From positions 1 to 36,832 of IMG/VR virus record IMGVR_UViG_3300045988_089998: a DNA stretch of 36,832 nucleotides, one strand, 5' to 3'. The position numbers and the translations under genes were made by a program. This DNA comes from a virus. Within the stretch, counting starts at the first letter, position 1. Every line of letters begins with the position of its first letter. Below are positions 2,660 through 36,832 of the stretch, piece by piece. Below the pieces are notes generated by a model that was given only the letters and a program-made list of their open reading frames with translations, was not told where the DNA came from and did no database searches.

Positions 2660-3385
2660 TTAAATCCTTCTATTTATCCGTATCATCGTATAATATCTAT
2701 ACCTATATCCCGTTACCGGGTTTTTCCCCTCATGGAACGTCTCCTTGTCTATGTAATACCCTTTCTTTTCCCTCGGCTCTTTCTTCCAGTACACGAGCCT
2801 GTCTTCTTTCGGCTCCGGCACCGGAAGATTTTGCGACGCATGATAGCGTGCCTCCTTGAGCCTCGGATCCGTGTCCGGGGTTTTGGTGATGTACGCCGCC
2901 AGTTCTGCAAACTCTCCCTTTTCATACAGCAGCTGGAAGTTCACTCCTCCATAATCCCATGCGTTCTTCAATATTAGGTCCGCATCCGGTATCCGGTTTA
3001 CGATAATATGGATATGCCATGCCCCTTTCGTTCCCACCTCTATATTCCTAAGATACCTGAGTTCAACTCCCTGTTTTCGGTATTCTCCCCTAATCTTCCG
3101 CAGGGTCTTTGCCAGTATCCTTATCGCTTCCTTCATATCTCCTGGCCTATCGTTCTTCCTCCATGTAAGGGTAGCCAGATAGTCATTCGGCTTAAACCAT
3201 TCCCTCAGTTTGTGCCTTGCCTTCCGCTCCTTATTCCATTGATTCCGCCTTTTGATCTGCTCCTTGGTCGGCTTTTTCTTTTCCTTCCTCGGCGATCCTC
3301 TCGCCCCATACCTTCCATCCAGATACTCATACACCTCTATGGCGTTTGGAAAGATATATGTCAGTCTCTTGTATCTCTTTTTCAT
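2660..3385 (-). CDS. rep: HUH-superfamily rolling-circle replication initiator (Rep)
   Basis: 241 aa carrying the three RCR motifs in order with plausible spacing: YLATLTW (motif I), AWHIHIIV (HUH, motif II) and ELAAYITKT (YxxK, motif III). There is a basic N-terminal region. Confidence 0.65.
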   Translation of the reverse strand: MKKRYKRLTYIFPNAIEVYEYLDGRYGARGSPRKEKKKPTKEQIKRRNQWNKERKARHKLREWFKPNDYLATLTWRKNDRPGDMKEAIRILAKTLRKIRGEYRKQGVELRYLRNIEVGTKGAWHIHIIVNRIPDADLILKNAWDYGGVNFQLLYEKGEFAELAAYITKTPDTDPRLKEARYHASQNLPVPEPKEDRLVYWKKEPREKKGYYIDKETFHEGKNPVTGYRYRYYTMIRINRRI

Positions 3386-3427
3386 CTGCTGCCATGTCCT
3401 TAAGTTAATATTCTTATCGAGTGATAA

Positions 3428-3450
3428 AAACGGGCGATAAGTCCCCGTTT
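3428..3450 (-). terminator. Terminator/attenuator-like hairpin in the rep leader (minus strand)
   Basis: The minus strand reads aaacggg-gacttatcg-cccgttt followed by ttat. This is a 7-bp stem with a short U tract, about 45 nt upstream of the rep ATG. Confidence 0.3.
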
Positions 3451-3453
3451 CTC

Positions 3454-3482
3454 TTGACTTCTCGCCCCACAGATGATATATT
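3454..3482 (+). promoter_or_regulatory. Sigma-70-type promoter firing rightward, antisense to the rep leader
   Basis: TTGACT (3454-3459), a 17-nt spacer, then TG-n-TATATT (extended -10, 3474-3482). Confidence 0.45.
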
Positions 3483-3488
3483 TGAATT

Positions 3489-3556
3489 GGTTATAAATAT
3501 CTGTGTGGCGACAAGTCACTTGGCACATCTATTTGCGGTAGGTGTGCTATTTTTTT
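3489..3556 (+). ncRNA. Candidate ~68-nt countertranscript (antisense RNA) to the rep leader
   Basis: It starts just downstream of the promoter above. It ends in an intrinsic terminator with stem gcacatc/ggtgtgc (3523-3529/3541-3547) followed by ta + T7 (3550-3556). No plus-strand ORF is present. Confidence 0.4.
3498..3549. repeat. ~50-nt hairpin-containing repeat, copy 1
   Basis: tatctgtgt, ~16 nt variable, then ggcacatctatttgcggta and RRtgtgcta. It is homologous to 4284..4333. Confidence 0.8.
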
Positions 3557-3779
3557 ATCCGCAATTCCTGATCCTGTATCTCAAAAGTTCCTCCCTGCTT
3601 ACTCCTACGTTCCCCCTCTCTGCATACTTCTTGCACCTGTTCCCTGGCCTGGTCCTGCACTGCCTTTCCCCGCAGTATCCCTGGTCAATTGCTTCCAGTT
3701 CTCCTCTGGCGCTTATGCAGTAATACTGCGTGTACCTGTTACATCCGATGCATCTGTTCCCGCTGATTTCGATTTTCAT
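3555..3779 (-). CDS. Small cysteine-rich protein (putative zinc-binding; resembles Cys-rich proteins of Firmicutes mobile elements)
   Basis: 74 aa with CxxC...C...C...C...C spacing (GNRCIGCNRYTQYYC...GYCGERQC). An RBS aaggagg lies upstream of the ATG at 3779. Confidence 0.55.
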   Translation of the reverse strand: MKIEISGNRCIGCNRYTQYYCISARGELEAIDQGYCGERQCRTRPGNRCKKYAERGNVGVSREELLRYRIRNCG

Positions 3780-3791
3780 ATGTGTTCCTCC

Positions 3792-3851
3792 TTATAGTGA
3801 GCATTTTGTTCACTCTTCTTTTGCTTTATTATAGTGTACAATATGTTCACT
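3792..3851. promoter_or_regulatory. Two copies of a 23-bp operator-like repeat in a divergent control region
   Basis: ttatagtgagcattttgttcact (3792-3814) and ttatagtgtacaatatgttcact (3829-3851). Each contains inverted half-sites AGTGnnC-N5-GTTCACT. They lie between divergent genes 3779(-) and 3880(+). Confidence 0.4.
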
Positions 3852-3879
3852 GTCAAGAATGAATATGGAGGGACTTATT

Positions 3880-4143
3880 ATGTTTGGTCAAAGATTAAAT
3901 TTTGTACGCAAGTCAAAGGGAATAACTGCCCAAAAAATGGCAGATGAATTACAGATTGCTCTTCGCTCGTATCGTATGTACGAAAGTGAAAATCGTTTCC
4001 CATCTCTTGAAATGCTAGTAAAAATTGCAGATATTTTAGACGTTTCTACGGATTATCTGCTCTGCCGTGATAAGTTTCTTCAATCTCACGGAGTTTTCTC
4101 TGATGGATCCCCAGACGATCTTCAAGCGAATCCCAAAGTGTAA
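3880..4143 (+). CDS. XRE-family helix-turn-helix transcriptional regulator
   Basis: MFGQRLNFVRKSKGITAQKMADEL...LVKIADILDVSTDYLL is a typical HTH_3 pattern. GGAGGG lies 7 nt upstream of ATG 3880; the track start at 3859 lacks an RBS. Confidence 0.8.
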   Translation: MFGQRLNFVRKSKGITAQKMADELQIALRSYRMYESENRFPSLEMLVKIADILDVSTDYLLCRDKFLQSHGVFSDGSPDDLQANPKV

Positions 4144-4270
4144 AGTCCCCCGTACGTTGTCCTGCTTCAATCTGTTTATAATACCTTTCGCTTATTTCTA
4201 AATAATCTGCCATCTGCTGTTGTGTCATGCCCGCTTCCTTGCGGGCCTTTTTTAATATCTCTCTTGCCAT
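4046..4270 (-). CDS. XRE-family helix-turn-helix regulator, convergent with and overlapping 3880..4143
   Basis: The HTH_3 pattern is ILKKARKEAGMTQQQMADYLEISERYYKQIEAGQR. RBS GAGGGA lies upstream. The 3' 98 nt overlap the plus-strand XRE gene. Confidence 0.75.
   Translation of the reverse strand: MAREILKKARKEAGMTQQQMADYLEISERYYKQIEAGQRTGDFTLWDSLEDRLGIHQRKLREIEETYHGRADNP
4229..4253 (+). terminator. Intrinsic terminator for the plus-strand XRE transcript
   Basis: gcccgc-ttcctt-gcgggc followed by c + T6. It is embedded antisense in the 5' coding part of the minus-strand XRE gene. Confidence 0.55.
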
Positions 4271-4283
4271 TTGCTTTCCCTCT

Positions 4284-4333
4284 TATCTGTGTTTTAACCG
4301 CCACCGGCACATCTATTTGCGGTAAATGTGCTA
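4284..4333. repeat. ~50-nt hairpin-containing repeat, copy 2
   Basis: The same blocks as copy 1, with 19 nt identical (ggcacatctatttgcggta). It lies in the leader of the minus-strand XRE gene. Confidence 0.8.
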
Positions 4334-4501
4334 CTCATTTTCATACCTGTACTGACCATACTGATCCATATAAAATATGGTTATGCTTCCATCTGCATTT
4401 TCCCTGCGGGAGATTTCCCTGAATGCCTCCCTCTTCCTCTCCGTATCGGAGATGCTTGTGGCATTCCGACTTAGCCAGTCCAGATCATATCCTCTATCCA
4501 T
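4331..4501 (-). CDS. Small hypothetical protein (56 aa, below the ORF-track cutoff)
   Basis: Hand translation gives MDRGYDLDWLSRNATSISDTERKREAFREISRRENADGSITIFYMDQYGQYRYENE*. A GA-rich RBS precedes it, and it fills an otherwise empty gap in the minus-strand operon. Confidence 0.5.
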   Translation of the reverse strand: MDRGYDLDWLSRNATSISDTERKREAFREISRRENADGSITIFYMDQYGQYRYENE

Positions 4502-6783: not shown

Positions 6784-7563
6784 TTGACTTTTGGAGAGAA
6801 ACTAAGAGAGGCAAGAAAAGTTAACGGTTTTACTCAAAAACAACTTGCAGATAAAATATCTGCAAAACACAATTCTGTTAGTGACTGGGAAAATGATAAA
6901 AACAAACCAGACCCTAATACTATTGAATTAATATGTGGTGTTTTGAAGATAACTCCTAACTATCTTCTTGGAGGATCAGAAGACGCATTTTCTCCTTCTG
7001 ATAAAGAAATGTTGAAAAAATACCATGCCCTTGACAAACATGGTAAATATATTGTAGACCAATTATTAAATGCAGAATATGATCGTTGCTCTGCTGTTGA
7101 TTTCAGCGAGCCGTCACAGTCTTCTACCCGGGTTATTCAATTCTACCAGAGATTAGCCAGTGCTGGATCCGGTCAGTTTGTGTTTGATGATATCCCAGTC
7201 GATTTGATTGAAATACCGGATGTCCCGGAATATCAGCATGTAAAATATGCAATAGGTGTAAATGGCGCAAGCATGGAACCCCTCTATCACGATGGCGATA
7301 TTCTTCTTGTCGAGCCGGCCGGAAATCTTTCAATTGGCGAGATCGGTATTTTCATCGTAGACGGATATTCCTATGTTAAGAAATTAGGAGATAACTCCCT
7401 AATATCTCTTAACAAAGAGTATCCGGATGTTGCAATCAGCGAAAATACCGAATGTCTCGGGCGCGTAGTGGATAAAGTCTCATCTGTTCCAAAGCTTCCT
7501 CTTGAGGATCTGCTTGCTTTGCAATCTGCTGCTAAGAAACAATTCAAAGAAAAGGATGCCTAA
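6784..7563 (+). CDS. CI/LexA-like repressor (XRE HTH plus S24 peptidase domain)
   Basis: The N-terminus FGEKLREARKVNGFTQKQLADKI is an HTH. The C-terminus GVNGASMEPLYHDGDILLVEP...YVKKL carries the S24 Ser and Lys motifs. It uses a TTG start with GAGGTGAG upstream. Confidence 0.85.
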   Translation: MTFGEKLREARKVNGFTQKQLADKISAKHNSVSDWENDKNKPDPNTIELICGVLKITPNYLLGGSEDAFSPSDKEMLKKYHALDKHGKYIVDQLLNAEYDRCSAVDFSEPSQSSTRVIQFYQRLASAGSGQFVFDDIPVDLIEIPDVPEYQHVKYAIGVNGASMEPLYHDGDILLVEPAGNLSIGEIGIFIVDGYSYVKKLGDNSLISLNKEYPDVAISENTECLGRVVDKVSSVPKLPLEDLLALQSAAKKQFKEKDA

Positions 7564-8420: not shown

Positions 8421-9545
8421 ATGTGGCCAGAATACCAAGAAAATGGAAAAGTCAAATTCGTAGAGCGCTATGTGAATCCCCTGACCGGAAAATGCGGAAA
8501 GACATCAGTAACGCTTGATAAGGATACGCGCGCTACCAGAAAGGAGGCTGAAAAGATCCTCGAGCAGAAAATCGAGCGGAAGTTAAAAGAACTTACGTCC
8601 AGCACCGCTCCCGAATCAGTCACCTTGCAGGATCTTGTCGATGCCTACCGCGCCGAGCAGAAAAAGACGGTCAAGGCATCAACATACCGGCGCAACTTTT
8701 TCTATGCGAATTCAATGCTACAAACCCTTGGCCCGGACACGCTAGTAGACAGGCTCACGGCCAAGTATATACGGGATAGGATGTACGCCCTGGACGCAAA
8801 AAACAGCACCATCAACGAACTTTTGAAGCGCACGAAGGGGATACTCAGATGGGGGTATAAGAATGACTATATCGCGGATATAGCGTTTCTAAATAAGGTG
8901 TCTCCACTTCCGGACATATCGTACAGGGAAAAGATCGAGGACAAGTATCTTGAGACAGAAGAATTCAAGAGCCTGGTAAGCGCAATGGATGTGACCAAAT
9001 GGAAACTTCTCACCGAATTTCTCGGGCTGTCAGGCATCCGAATCGGCGAGGCCCTATCGCTGGATAAGCGAGATGTAGATTTTAATGACAGATGCATCCA
9101 CGTTACTACAACCTACGATACCAACAACCTGATAGATACAGATCCCAAGTCTCCCTCATCATATCGCGACGTGTACATGCAGGATGATCTATACGACGTG
9201 TGCAAGCAGATATCAACCTACATGCTACGGCAGTCCTTGGTCAACGGATATGGCAAGAGCCCCGTATTCTTCCAGGGAGAGGACGGCGGACGAGCAAATT
9301 ATGCGGCTTATAATAAGTACATCAAAGAGAACGGCCGCCGCATTCTCGGCAGGGAAAAGATTACCGCCCACATACTCCGCCACACCCATACATGCATGCT
9401 GGCCGAAAACGGGGTGCAGTTGGAAACAATCACACGCCGACTCGGGCACGAGGATAGCAAGATTACCAAGCAGATATATTTGCACATAACAAAAAAGATG
9501 CGCCAAAACGATAATGATCAGATTGCTTCCGTGAAAATTATGTAA
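8421..9545 (+). CDS. int: Phage integrase (tyrosine recombinase)
   Basis: 374 aa. The catalytic signature includes GIRIGEAL (Arg), HILRHTH (HxxR), LGHEDSKIT and the nucleophile context QIYLH. There is an arm-binding-type N-terminus, and AAGGAGG lies upstream. Confidence 0.9.
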   Translation: MWPEYQENGKVKFVERYVNPLTGKCGKTSVTLDKDTRATRKEAEKILEQKIERKLKELTSSTAPESVTLQDLVDAYRAEQKKTVKASTYRRNFFYANSMLQTLGPDTLVDRLTAKYIRDRMYALDAKNSTINELLKRTKGILRWGYKNDYIADIAFLNKVSPLPDISYREKIEDKYLETEEFKSLVSAMDVTKWKLLTEFLGLSGIRIGEALSLDKRDVDFNDRCIHVTTTYDTNNLIDTDPKSPSSYRDVYMQDDLYDVCKQISTYMLRQSLVNGYGKSPVFFQGEDGGRANYAAYNKYIKENGRRILGREKITAHILRHTHTCMLAENGVQLETITRRLGHEDSKITKQIYLHITKKMRQNDNDQIASVKIM

Positions 9546-10116: not shown

Positions 10117-10345
10117 AGTACTTAATGCGGATCTGTACCCGTCTACAGCACGTATTAAGCCGGCCACCCATTAACCCTTGTAACACCCCGGTGGCGTTAT
10201 CCGGCGCTTAACGGTTGTGCGATAACATCCTGCATACAGATTACAAGTATCCTATAAGCCGTGGGACGGGACATGGACGGAGGCTTGCTTGACGTATGTA
10301 AAATATCAGGCCTGACATCTGCCCCGGTAATAATCCGGGGCAATT
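10000..10345 (+). other. G+C-rich, helix-dense non-coding region (unassigned; candidate structured RNA or recombination-site remnant)
   Basis: No convincing ORF in any frame. Many local stems are visible: ccggcgg/ccgccgg, gcaggg..ccctgc, cttaatgc..gtattaag enclosing ctgta..tacag, gccacc..ggtggc, gttatc..gataac and gccccgg-taataat-ccggggc. Confidence 0.3.
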
Positions 10346-10362
10346 TGAAAGGAAGTCCATAT

Positions 10363-11208
10363 ATGAGCGAGAAAATACTAGCGGCTATATATACTCGTGT
10401 AAGCACGCGAGAACAAGCAGAAGCAGGATATTCTTTGGACGCACAGCAGAGACTCCTTCTAGATTTCTGCAACTCAAAGAAATATATTGTCTACAGAATC
10501 TACTCTGATGAAGGAATAAGCGCAAAGGATATTAAGCATCGACCCGGAATGCTCCAATTGCTTTCAGATGCGGAACAGCGTAAATTCGACTGCATACTTG
10601 TCTGGAAGTTAACTCGGTTCTCTCGTAATATGGCGGATCTAATGACCGCATGCGAGAAGTTGGATAACTTGGGAATCGCACTTGTCAGTTATTCAGAGGC
10701 ATTCGACAGCGGAACTCCCGCCGGGCGAATGGTTAGATCAATGCTTGGGACTGTCGCCCAGTTTGAGCGGGAAGTAATCTCCGAGAATGTATATATGGGG
10801 CTGTTAGAGAGAGCCAGGCAGGGGAAGCGCACCTGTCATGATATCCTTGGATATGATCTACTTGGGCCCGATAGTTTCTCTATCAATCCAACAGAGGCCG
10901 AATACGTTAATTTTGTGCACGACCAATACCTTATCCGCAAAAACATCACCGAAGTGGCGTTGTTGGCAAAAGAAAAGGGGTTCCGCGGTAAGCGTGGACG
11001 CATCCCACACATTAACAGCGTAAGCGTCATACTTACGCGCCCCGAATACGCAGGATATAATGTATTCCACGGTGAGTTATACAAGGGGGACTACGAGTCA
11101 ATTCGAACCCCAGCTAGTTTCAATCGGGTGCAGAGACTCATCCTACGCCAAGGAAAAATAATGGGCAGATGTCGCAAGCATCCTCTCTACATTGTCCCTG
11201 AAAATTAG
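10363..11208 (+). CDS. Serine recombinase with resolvase and recombinase domains only; a large serine recombinase truncated before the zinc-ribbon and coiled-coil region (possibly a pseudogene)
   Basis: AAIYTRVSTREQ carries the catalytic Ser context. VWKLTRFSRN and the following recombinase-domain-like region are present. It ends at 281 aa, whereas characterised large serine integrases are much longer. RBS gaaaggaag precedes ATG 10363. Confidence 0.65.
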   Translation: MSEKILAAIYTRVSTREQAEAGYSLDAQQRLLLDFCNSKKYIVYRIYSDEGISAKDIKHRPGMLQLLSDAEQRKFDCILVWKLTRFSRNMADLMTACEKLDNLGIALVSYSEAFDSGTPAGRMVRSMLGTVAQFEREVISENVYMGLLERARQGKRTCHDILGYDLLGPDSFSINPTEAEYVNFVHDQYLIRKNITEVALLAKEKGFRGKRGRIPHINSVSVILTRPEYAGYNVFHGELYKGDYESIRTPASFNRVQRLILRQGKIMGRCRKHPLYIVPEN

Positions 11209-33737: not shown

Positions 33738-34781
33738 TTATGCAGCCACCCTCTGGCGCACGCTTCTTAATGTGTCTGGTGTGCTTTCCGCATAATACCT
33801 AGAAGTCACCGCAGGGCTGGCATGTCCAAGCACTTCCTGTATGCTTCCCAAATCTACTCCGCTATTCTTTAGACTCATCCCTAATGTTTTACGCATTTTA
33901 TGCGGATATACTCTATATTCGCATCCTATACGCTTCGCTATGAGTTTAAGCGATGCCCTGATCCCGCCAACGGTAAGTCTGCCATGCGGATTTCTGATGC
34001 CAACAAATAGCGCCTTATCATTATCTGTTCTGCTCGCAATGTATTTGTGAAGATGATACCTTGCTACCTCGTCAAGATATATGGTCCGGTATCTGCCTCC
34101 CTTCTCTCCTCTAATCAGGATATCCCCTGTTTTCCAGTCCACATCCTCGGCATTAATCTGTGCTACCTCTCCCACGCGCGCTCCCGTGCTCCGCAGCACC
34201 TCTACGATCGCACGATCCCTGAAAGTCCTGCATCCTTCCCGCAATTCCTCTAACTGTGCTGGCCGGAAATAATCGATCGGCTTGCGGGTCTCTTTCAGAG
34301 GCTCAACCGCTTCTACCGGATTTCCGGGGACGAACCGCTCTTTGCGCAGCCATGTAAAGAACGCGCTCAGGTATCTCCGCTCATTATTGCAGGTGGATGC
34401 CTGGTTCTGAAGGCCATTATTGCAGACATTGCGACGCTGGTACCATCGCAGATAGTAATCAATATCAATCTCATCCATTTCGGTTACTGGCTTATCAATT
34501 ACAGTTATCAGGCTATTTACAGCTCGCAAATACTGTTCCATTGTTTTCGGCGTGAGATTTCTCTTTTTAATTTTAAATAATCCGATCAGATACCGATTCT
34601 TTTCTTCTGTAGATGTATCTGCCTCTGCCGGCAATGTAGTAATCTGCTCGACATTAAGGAAGACGAATTGCTCTTCTAAAACTCGCTGCAATATATCCAG
34701 CATGGCCTTTTCCATATATTCCGACATTTGAAGCATTATATTGTTGATAACGCTTGTCTTTATATTTGCACTTGTATACAT
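33738..34781 (-). CDS. Tyrosine recombinase (XerC/D-like), second non-integrase copy
   Basis: Motifs are TGARVGEVAQI (Arg), GEKGGRYRTIYL, YPHKMRKT (HxxR), LGHASPAVT and SRYY (Tyr). AAGGAGG precedes ATG 34781; the alternative start is 34895. The N-terminal architecture parallels the shufflon recombinase. Confidence 0.85.
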   Translation of the reverse strand: MYTSANIKTSVINNIMLQMSEYMEKAMLDILQRVLEEQFVFLNVEQITTLPAEADTSTEEKNRYLIGLFKIKKRNLTPKTMEQYLRAVNSLITVIDKPVTEMDEIDIDYYLRWYQRRNVCNNGLQNQASTCNNERRYLSAFFTWLRKERFVPGNPVEAVEPLKETRKPIDYFRPAQLEELREGCRTFRDRAIVEVLRSTGARVGEVAQINAEDVDWKTGDILIRGEKGGRYRTIYLDEVARYHLHKYIASRTDNDKALFVGIRNPHGRLTVGGIRASLKLIAKRIGCEYRVYPHKMRKTLGMSLKNSGVDLGSIQEVLGHASPAVTSRYYAESTPDTLRSVRQRVAA

Positions 34782-34799
34782 GTTTTTTCCTCCTTCATA

Positions 34800-34828
34800 T
34801 TGCCCCAAAAGAGGATATATGCTATACT
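34800..34828 (+). promoter_or_regulatory. Rightward promoter antisense to the recombinase leader
   Basis: TTGCCC, 17 nt, then TG-c-TATACT (extended -10, 34820-34828). Confidence 0.35.
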
Positions 34829-34834
34829 CTTTAT

Positions 34835-34887
34835 AGGGAATTGCAGCAGATACTAGTCTTGCCGGACGGTCTGCTGCCTGTTTTTTT
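34835..34887 (+). ncRNA. Candidate ~50-nt antisense small RNA ending in a strong intrinsic terminator
   Basis: The stem is gcagcaga (34843-34850) paired with tctgctgc (34870-34877), followed by ctg + T7. It lies on the plus strand where all neighbouring genes are minus-strand. Confidence 0.35.
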
Positions 34888-34937
34888 GTTGTCATGTATA
34901 CTCACCCATTGCTATATGCCTGCAGCCTCTTCTCCTC

Positions 34938-36222: not shown

Positions 36223-36832
36223 CTATCCTGCTGCTATCCTCTCTACCTCCATCAGATCCTCCTCCAGGACGTCGGCCAGCAGCCTCCCTGCCAGTTTCCC
36301 ATGCCATATCTTCTTTTTTTCCGCCCTGAGTTCTCGGAACTCCTCCACCCTCAGTTTCCTGCTTATTTCCGCCATCCTTTCATCGTCCTTCGTGAGTCGC
36401 TTCTGTACCTCCTGCTGCCAGTTCCGGATGAATGTCTTAGCCTCCTCGAAGTCCTTGTTCTGGTTGTCTCCATAGGTTCTTTTCTGTCGTGCCGCTCCTC
36501 CCGGCTCGATCTCAAGCGTATAGTATGGCTTGTCCGGTTCTTCCACCTTCCGCAGGAATACGATATACGACTCTCTCTTCTGTATCCTCTCGAAATAGAT
36601 ATCGCTCCTGTCAAGGCAATGCCCGAGCACCCTTCCTTCGTGTATGATGTCCTCTATCCTCTCTGGTACAACGATGCAGTACTTCCCTCCTTCATATTCA
36701 TATTTCTCCCTTATTTCCTCGTATATCCTCTCGATATCCGGAAATGCCTCCGCAATCTTTCCTGCCCTTTTGGCAATCTCTCCGCCTCCGCTCAATTTCA
36801 CCGCCTCGTCATGCGCTTCTCTCAGATCTTTC
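36223..36832 (-). CDS. PcfJ-like protein, C-terminal part (continuation of 1..1635 across the circular junction)
   Basis: ...IIHEGRVLGHCLDRSDIYFERIQKRESYIVFLRKVEEPDKPYYTLEI matches the PcfJ core (eG..l.HCv....Y..ri..g.s.I.flR). The frame is open to the right window edge. Confidence 0.8.
   Translation of the reverse strand, partial: KDLREAHDEAVKLSGGGEIAKRAGKIAEAFPDIERIYEEIREKYEYEGGKYCIVVPERIEDIIHEGRVLGHCLDRSDIYFERIQKRESYIVFLRKVEEPDKPYYTLEIEPGGAARQKRTYGDNQNKDFEEAKTFIRNWQQEVQKRLTKDDERMAEISRKLRVEEFRELRAEKKKIWHGKLAGRLLADVLEEDLMEVERIAAG
36778..36832. repeat. Second copy of the 55-nt terminal direct repeat
   Basis: Exact identity to nt 1-55 by direct comparison. Confidence 0.95.

Follow-up and report, generated by a model that had tools for sequence, protein, structure and literature searches.

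The stretch of DNA analysed here (the window) is the entire IMG/VR virus record IMGVR_UViG_3300045988_089998, which is 36,832 nucleotides (nt) long and rated complete. The record is a circular assembly with a terminal overlap of 55 nt, and the window encodes a temperate siphovirus of Lachnospiraceae. Its rep gene (2660..3385, minus strand) sits in a leftward early operon in which a minus-strand promoter at 3856..3828 is followed by a 74-amino-acid (aa) Cys-rich open reading frame (ORF), a 169-bp spacer (hereafter the cassette), rep, PcfK-like and DUF7666 genes and a PcfJ-like gene. A preliminary description of the locus had proposed that rep encodes a plasmid-style rolling-circle initiator and that its leader holds an antisense RNA and an attenuator. 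We report that the spacer very probably carries an antisense RNA gene and probably the nick locus of a replication origin.

Judged by its sequence, the 241-aa product of rep is a genuine HUH rolling-circle initiator with a single catalytic tyrosine. Motifs I to III, read earlier in the ORF at 3385..2660 as ATLTW, HIHIIV and YITK, are present, and in a hidden Markov model (HMM) search against Rep families the protein matched Pfam PF23343 (REP_ORF2-G2P) at 3e-14 and 53.6 bits, above the curated cut-off of 27.8 bits. It also matched phrog_3584 ("replication initiation protein") at 2e-46, while NCBIfam gave no hits. In an alignment of 54 homologues (30–82% identity), N48, E116, H124, H126, W143, G146, Y165 and K168 were invariant. 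These residues include both His of the metal-binding motif (H124-I-H126) and the Tyr and Lys of the catalytic YxxK motif, which has one Tyr only; the motif I threonines, T72 and T74, were kept in 43 of the 54. The AlphaFold (AF2) model of Rep had a predicted local distance difference test (pLDDT) score of 92, and its nearest folds in the PDB were HUH nuclease domains, those of adeno-associated virus Rep, parvovirus NS1, SIRV1 ORF119 and circovirus Rep (probability up to 0.99, with weak E-values from 7e-3). A sequence search of the PDB returned only spurious TPR and peptidase matches, so that the comparison with solved structures relies on the fold search. In a viral model library, the matches were siphovirus PF23343 proteins and microvirus initiators. 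In RepA of pC194 a Glu four residues ahead of the Tyr is essential (PMC5703833). A Glu-Tyr catalytic pair of this type was ruled out for Rep because the Glu is not conserved; the corresponding position, 161, was K in 28 of the 54 homologues, E or D in 8 each and R in 5.

As a statement of family membership, the label "plasmid-style" did not hold. All 54 homologues matched PF23343, none matched the plasmid families Rep_1 (PF01446), Rep_2 (PF01719) or Rep_trans (PF02486, at E ≤ 0.05), and the Phage_GPA HMM did not match the family. A protein search of PLSDB (72,556 plasmid records) returned no Rep homologue. Eight phage records have a homologue, among them Butyrivibrio phages Arawn and Idris (36%) and the closest cultured relative, Clostridium phage phiCs5676-1 (OR574845; locus L064 in our set), whose Rep is 82% identical; 63 viral contigs and 57 genome loci came from the other collections scanned. 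The named genome loci were nearly all from Lachnospiraceae, the others including further Clostridia, and many relatives were embedded in chromosome-sized contigs of 100–617 kb. Because the plasmid families and plasmid records gave no match, only PF23343 did and the relatives lie in such large contigs, Rep is by these comparisons the initiator of an integrating phage and not a member of a plasmid family. Relaxases of the MobA/VirD2 class recognise a hairpin a few nt 5' of the nick site. The nuclease domain of these relaxases was also matched by 4 of the 54 homologues (best E 2.6e-6), which hints that the Rep family lies near conjugative relaxases and may recognise a hairpin in the same position.

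The leader upstream of rep contains a promoter on the opposite (plus) strand at 3454..3482, with a −35 hexamer TTGACT (3454–3459), a 17-nt spacer, a TG at 3474–3475 and a −10 hexamer TATATT (3477–3482); the hexamers, spacing and TG agree with the preliminary description. The RNA predicted to start there is about 66–68 nt long (3489..3556, plus strand). It begins with a free 5' tail (about 16 nt), followed by a small stem-loop and by an intrinsic terminator (3521..3556), itself a hairpin at 3521–3549 and a run of seven T at 3550–3556. The terminator and its T-run had been described correctly, but the stem has 13 pairs, wobbles included, and not 7. The predicted 68-nt RNA folded at −21.6 kcal/mol (z = −3.8). 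A single promoter-like match is not above chance (5 sites vs 3.4 ± 1.7 expected in 2 kb) and the significance of this promoter therefore comes from its conservation in relatives. At the gathering score no Rfam family was found in the window, ctRNA_pT181, ctRNA_pND324, ctRNA_pGA1, CopA, RNAI and sar included, and a search of 3300–3900 at E ≤ 10 gave only chance hits of microRNA type with E of about 1 or above. The unit has the features of a cis-antisense countertranscript, namely an opposite-strand promoter in the leader, an intrinsic terminator and, in keeping with the earlier claim that the product encodes no ORF, no conserved ORF. A 42-aa rep-sense ORF in the spacer was considered as a small protein gene and rejected, the ORF being absent in most relatives.

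Within the 300 nt upstream of rep, viral loci from clades with 42–82% Rep identity had the same layout with different stem sequences. A covariance model (R1) was built from 15 upstream regions and searched over 73 sources. It gave 34 hits that were antisense to rep and just upstream of it, except for one mirror-image hit on the palindrome of L064, and the hits spanned Rep identities of roughly 32–82%; phiCs5676-1 has the same cassette (77 bits). In the model-fitted alignment 87% of cells were paired, compared to 58% in column shuffles and 36–43% with slid partners, and compensatory changes were seen at all 21 modelled pairs. The terminator helix was 96.6% paired, with covariation at 10 of 10 pairs. 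Its non-Watson-Crick cells were 24 G-U vs 3 A-C, which argues that the helix is selected as plus-strand RNA. Among 33 distinct modules, the −35 was TTGAC[T/A/C] in 31, the spacer was 17 nt in 31, the −10 was TAnnnT in all and the TG extension was present in 26. The hexamers, the spacing and the extension are kept on one strand only, while the sequence of the spacer varies, and a T-run follows the terminator in every module. The predicted RNA is 53–76 nt long in the relatives (median 63), and the cassette stays beside rep while the gene upstream differs. This pattern makes it very probable that a 53–76-nt antisense RNA gene is real; the short promoter-to-terminator unit proposed earlier as antisense to the rep leader is, as a predicted RNA, borne out by conservation far beyond chance.

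Variants of the spacer were also observed. A clade from IMG/VR, L002–L036, whose Rep is about 55% identical, has an altered spacer in which the L003 type carries a weaker antisense promoter (TTGAGT-17-TACAAT) and a different hairpin and the L002 type has lost the promoter.

The antisense promoter is embedded in a 20-bp inverted repeat, repeat B (3455..3518, no strand assigned), a point missed in the preliminary description. Its arms lie at 3455–3475 and 3498–3518 and its AT-rich loop holds the −10 and the start site. As MAFFT alignment of the repeat had register shifts, the covariance-model alignment was used instead, and there 11 of 11 modelled pairs had compensatory changes and 78.7% of cells were paired. 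The mirror-image arm keeps no promoter hexamers. On the rep mRNA the repeat would fold as a stem-loop, and the free 5' tail of the antisense RNA is complementary to its apical loop and 5' arm. With the predicted antisense start site in the loop of repeat B, that tail would face a single-stranded loop. RNAII of pMV158 binds its target tail first (PMC4485353), and the geometry of repeat B plausibly suits pairing of this kind.

Downstream of repeat B on the rep-sense strand is hairpin C (3428..3450, minus strand), followed by a run of five U (3430..3426). This is the terminator-like hairpin that had been described as an attenuator, and both the hairpin and the U-run are present. RNAalifold on a MAFFT alignment of hairpin C gave no pairs, the stems being out of register, and the hairpin was assessed by folding each sequence with shuffles. 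A hairpin occupies this position in 36 of 36 short-type loci, with a mean free energy of −11.6 kcal/mol, a mean z of −3.7 and widely different stems. It is more stable on the rep-sense strand and has twice the G-U pairs there. This agrees with a hairpin formed either as RNA in the leader or as DNA on the strand that is nicked. When the leader was folded with the 5' arm of repeat B masked, as it would be by the antisense RNA, the freed 3' arm paired with 11–15 nt of the loop and 3' arm of hairpin C, beside the U-run. This alternative pairing is present in the window, phiCs5676-1, L062, L067, L068, L070, L089, L104, L114 and L118, in about 10–13 loci altogether, and shows one double change from G-C to A-U between the window and L062; about three quarters of the loci lack it.

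The GenBank record of phiCs5676-1 places a hypothetical 36-aa coding sequence (CS5676_0051, L064 3859–3969), the counterpart of the 42-aa rep-sense ORF, over the inverted repeat and hairpin C. The ORF is missing in most relatives, so it is probably not a gene. In the sub-family L037–L057, L091 and L094, an extra rep-sense hairpin followed by ATATTTTT lies between the antisense promoter and hairpin C, and its U-rich tail is complementary to the region of the rep start codon (AAAUAUGGC) in several members.

A search for a nick site or double-strand origin near rep yielded a putative candidate that the preliminary description had missed. Downstream of hairpin C is a near-invariant 27-nt box, ACTCGATAAGAATATTAACTTAAGGAC (CT[T/C]GATAA...TATTAA; 3396..3422, minus strand), in which conservation and spacing suggest the nick region of a double-strand origin. 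In the window the box also includes the ribosome-binding site of rep, AAGGA (3397..3401, minus strand), 11 nt before the ATG. In distant relatives the two are apart, and the box is for this reason not a translation signal. The core CT[T/C]G[A/C]T[A/T]A was found in 59 of 76 distinct loci, with Rep identities as low as 32% and Butyrivibrio phage Arawn among them; in the clade L002–L036 the box reads CTTGCTA. The composite pattern CT[T/C]GAT[A/T]A, RRR and TATTAA occurs once in the genome. Hairpin C lies 6–10 nt upstream of the box, and the distance from the box to the antisense −35 is about 31–32 nt in most short-type loci, while that from the box to the ATG varies from 21 to 54 nt. The core resembles the origins of phiX174 and pC194. 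It reads CTCGATAA (CTCGATA) in the window, as against CTTGATA in pC194, the origin of which carries CTTGATAATAA (PMC7072734). On these patterns the box and hairpin C together are probably the nick locus of the double-strand origin on which Rep acts.

Taken together, we hold with modest confidence that a conserved control-and-origin cassette travels with this Rep family and that its antisense RNA lowers the output of Rep. The cassette would comprise a strong constitutive promoter on the opposite strand, a short untranslated RNA with its terminator, repeat B, hairpin C and the nick box. No rep-sense promoter was found inside the 169-bp spacer, and rep mRNA must therefore cross the antisense target, since none intervenes between the promoter at 3856..3828 and rep. 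The antisense RNA, made constitutively, would bind the leader of each early transcript extending into rep and form a duplex of 60–70 bp, so that less Rep is made. This could happen by cleavage or decay of the duplex, by head-on interference between promoters or, in the clade of the window, by refolding of the leader such that the freed 3' arm lengthens the hairpin before the U5. The origin would be kept silent under leaky early transcription, as in a lysogen, and Rep would be dosed during lytic growth, when strong early transcription after induction overrides the brake. A threshold for Rep makes biological sense because a nickase acting at its own chromosomal origin would harm the integrated prophage. 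Control by antisense RNA is general in rolling-circle plasmids (PMC5703833). In this model we infer that the RNA is transcribed, that it acts negatively on rep and by which route it does so, and that the box is where nicking takes place.

Several findings weigh against such a brake. The target of the RNA stops about 100 nt short of the rep start codon, so the RNA cannot mask the ribosome-binding site of rep directly. The antisense promoter keeps a rigid spacing to the box but not to the start codon, and a role linked to the origin would account for this as well. The clade of L002 type has no antisense unit, and the unit is thus dispensable for this Rep. Because the covariation alignment was fitted to the model, its pairing is somewhat inflated; both the raw sequences and the slid control agree with the picture it gives. 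In repeat B the wobbles have no strand preference (26 G-U vs 26 A-C), and its covariation could come from inverted protein sites in the DNA that change in concert or from a cruciform, which would mean a role at the DNA level. The U-run after hairpin C is missing in L078, L081, L085, L086, L095, L097 and L113, several of which keep the antisense promoter. Finally, the same U-run is preceded by a hairpin in both conformers of the leader, which does not establish a true on/off attenuator. For the earlier proposal of antisense-driven attenuation of rep the findings are mixed: the hairpin is conserved, and in the clade of the window masking the 5' arm does yield an alternative pairing, but the U-run is not conserved, a clear choice between pre-emptor and terminator is not seen and a hairpin stands before the U-run in both states. 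Attenuation is possible in the clade of the window. It cannot be the general mechanism of the family, because the U-run is not conserved and most loci lack the alternative pairing.

The spacing of the unit from the box also fits the main rival explanation, in which the unit is a lagging-strand origin resembling plasmid single-strand origins (sso), with RNA polymerase making a primer on the displaced rep-sense strand, or in which transcription activates the origin as negative supercoiling opens hairpin C and the box. We consider this unlikely, yet a good deal agrees with it. The unit lies directly 5' of the putative nick site on the strand with the nick motif and its RNA is complementary to that strand; the −35 keeps its distance of about 31–32 nt from the box in the short architecture whatever the distance to the start codon; and in single-stranded DNA, folding of repeat B would restore the −35 and spacer in double-stranded form. 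Among the window proteins scanned, none was recognised as a primase, helicase or loader, and ssoA and ssoU primed by RNA polymerase are standard in rolling-circle plasmids (PMC5703833). However, only the plus strand of duplex DNA gives a correct reading of the conserved −35 and −10. In the folded single strand, the arm and loop that would take the place of the non-template strand keep neither hexamer (the arm reads GTGACT, ATGACT, CTGGCT or AGGACC, and the loop hexamers vary), and a −10 within the hairpin would have no non-template strand. A full intrinsic terminator is not a requirement of known ssos, and host primosomes would be usable by a 37-kb phage. A combination of the two roles, which we judge rather improbable, would make the cassette and rep a complete minimal rolling-circle replicon in a tailed phage, with a lagging-strand origin primed by RNA polymerase, a nick site and the initiator. 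The RNA would restrain Rep when made from the duplex, and would prime the complementary strand once per genome length when made from the displaced strand, on which the inverted repeat restores its promoter.

A further possibility is that the small RNA is real and has its main target elsewhere, either in the gene upstream, in the manner of lambda oop or P22 sar, or in trans in early leaders. The terminator abuts the stop codon of the upstream gene, the 74-aa Cys-rich ORF (3555..3779, minus strand). A candidate in trans is the XRE gene at 4270..4046, near whose ribosome-binding site the window has a partial second copy (copy 2; 4284..4340, plus strand) of the 3' two-thirds of the RNA, without the promoter or the T-run. 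Through copy 2, the leader of this gene is complementary to the antisense RNA over about 29 nt plus 9 nt, and the 9-mer, ACACAGAUA, ends 2 nt before the ribosome-binding site. In a search for trans targets, which covered matches of the 5' tail at early-gene starts, copy 2 was the only match above chance, and no other match near a start codon did better than chance. We nonetheless regard a main target other than rep as quite improbable: the upstream gene varies among relatives, whereas the cassette stays with rep, and copy 2 lies at the edge of a 784-bp insert that is missing from phiCs5676-1. Copy 2 may be either a second target or a recombination scar.

The inverted repeats could also act at the DNA level only, binding Rep or a repressor, with the promoter and terminator strings making no functional RNA. 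In the clade of the window three copies of GACTTnTCGCC, 11–12 nt long, lie in the arms of repeat B and in hairpin C beside the box. The lack of strand bias in repeat B agrees with this, and protein sites can look like covarying pairs when they change together; in pUB110, RepU covers the origin along with the promoter next to it (PMC5703833). The terminator speaks against this explanation, since its wobbles are strand-specific (24 vs 3) and a T-run is found in every module. Moreover, the hexamers, the 17-nt spacing and the TG extension are conserved despite a variable spacer sequence, and the motif triplet occurs in only about a quarter of the loci. We would call it a poor candidate, a shade weaker than a target outside rep. 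That the cassette equips the prophage for plasmid-like episomal maintenance, a lifestyle proposed in the preliminary description, is very improbable and we set it aside: the logic does resemble rolling-circle plasmid copy control (PMC5703833) and the assembly is circular with its 55-nt overlap, but any phage genome that is packaged or replicating should assemble as a circle, a tyrosine integrase (8421–9545) and a CI-like S24 repressor (6784–7563) are present, no partition or plasmid maintenance genes were seen, the plasmid records gave 0 hits, the relatives lie inside contigs of 100–617 kb, and the published description of phiCs5676-1, which forms plaques on Clostridium scindens DSM 5676, is that of a typical temperate siphovirus possessing a lysogeny module (PMC8005731). 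Overall, the observation made in the preliminary description was confirmed and its interpretation is partly supported.

The remaining gene content of the window includes a terminase, portal, protease, major head protein, tape measure, Dit, holin and endolysin. Between the early genes and the terminase region lies a second tyrosine recombinase gene (33738–34895), and a serine recombinase gene (10261–11208) occurs in the same genome as both tyrosine recombinases. The PcfJ-like gene is broken by the ends of the record (1–1635 and 36223–36831), and the 55-nt terminal repeat shows the assembly to be circular. The promoter that drives the 74-aa ORF and rep (3828..3856, minus strand) is a perfect sigma-70-type promoter (TTGACA-17-TATAAT); the ORF itself gave no family hits (Pfam, PHROG and NCBIfam included). 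A palindromic operator-like site is present in two copies, TTATAGTGAGCATTTTGTTCACT at 3792–3814 and TTATAGTGTACAATATGTTCACT at 3829–3851. The second copy fills the spacer of the perfect promoter and adjoins a divergent XRE gene (3859–4143), and the pair looks like a second immunity-type switch that would control rep transcription directly. The segment at 3557–4340 (784 bp), which holds the two convergent XRE genes, the 74-aa ORF and the perfect promoter, is bounded by a 35-nt direct repeat of the antisense terminator hairpin (3522–3556 and 4306–4340, 86% identical). In phiCs5676-1, which lacks the two XRE genes and the 74-aa ORF, the homologue of a 56-aa ORF (4501..4331) directly abuts the cassette, and the segment for this reason looks like a recombination insert at the hairpin.

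Comparable systems are known from temperate phages and from plasmids. The gpA proteins of P2 and 186 are HUH nickases of temperate tailed phages encoded in an early operon; they are large two-tyrosine proteins with the origin inside the gene. The phage described here is likewise tailed and temperate and relies on an HUH nickase to start its replication, but its Rep belongs to a different protein family and has a single Tyr, and no antisense RNA is known for gpA. Lambda oop and P22 sar are antisense RNAs of about 70 nt that are made from constitutive promoters convergent with early transcription. The oop gene lies directly before the replication gene O, and its target is cII, while that of sar is ant. 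As with these RNAs, the short antisense RNA of the cassette lies in the early region of a tailed phage. In contrast, their targets are not a replication initiator, neither is tied to a rolling-circle origin, and there is no relation in sequence or in Rfam.

Among plasmids, a similar system is RNAII with copG-repB of pMV158 (Rep_2), in which a small untranslated RNA from a constitutive promoter is antisense to the rep leader within an operon. Both RNAs have a hairpin and a U-run besides a free 5' tail of about 16–17 nt (PMC4485353), and the phage RNA could plausibly pair tail first as well. They differ in that RNAII covers the translation signals of repB whereas the phage RNA stops about 100 nt short of the start codon. 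In the phage, moreover, Rep is of another Pfam family, the promoter lies inside a covarying inverted repeat and the host element is a 37-kb integrating tailed phage. The position of the target, well upstream of the start codon, is shared with RNAI/RNAII of pT181 and RNAIII of pIP501, the latter a theta replicon (PMC4981023). Freeing of the 3' arm to pair beside the U-run when the 5' arm is masked is also shared, in the clade of the window only. Unlike pT181 and pIP501, the cassette shows no clear choice between pre-emptor and terminator, with a hairpin before the U-run in both states; its U-run is not kept throughout the family, Rfam has no ctRNA family that matches it, and the phage Rep is not a Rep_trans protein as in pT181. 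The putative origin, finally, is reminiscent of pC194 and pUB110 (Rep_1) and of phiX174 gpA, with the origin before rep, a core CTTGATA (pC194 TTCTTATCTTGATAATAAGG, PMC7072734) and HUH plus Tyr chemistry; microvirus initiators are among the matches of Rep in the viral library. Antisense RNA control has been reported for the pC194/pUB110 family (PMC5703833). The differences here are that neither Rep_1 nor Phage_GPA matches, that the Glu of pC194 is Lys in 28 of the 54 homologues, that the core of the window is CTCGATA and that the nick position is a predicted one.

Searches of the literature brought up no account of this cassette, nor of a tailed phage in which antisense control acts on a rolling-circle initiator. 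In small Gram-positive plasmids, control of such an initiator by antisense RNA is textbook knowledge, and the same logic, placed around a different Rep family, appears to recur in dozens of Lachnospiraceae prophages, the hosts of which are abundant in the human and animal gut. The box with its hairpin is a testable origin for a poorly known initiator family, and the cassette could serve as a compact replicon or control part for genetic tools in Clostridia. With the cultured relative phiCs5676-1 on C. scindens, the readings of the cassette given above are testable. If cassette and rep do form a minimal replicon, this would explain how double-stranded concatemers arise in a 37-kb phage without a recognisable primase, helicase or loader. 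If instead the RNA restrains Rep, it would add a layer to the lysis-lysogeny circuit that blocks nicking of the integrated origin when repression leaks, and this would bear on spontaneous induction and on the stability of prophages in gut commensals.

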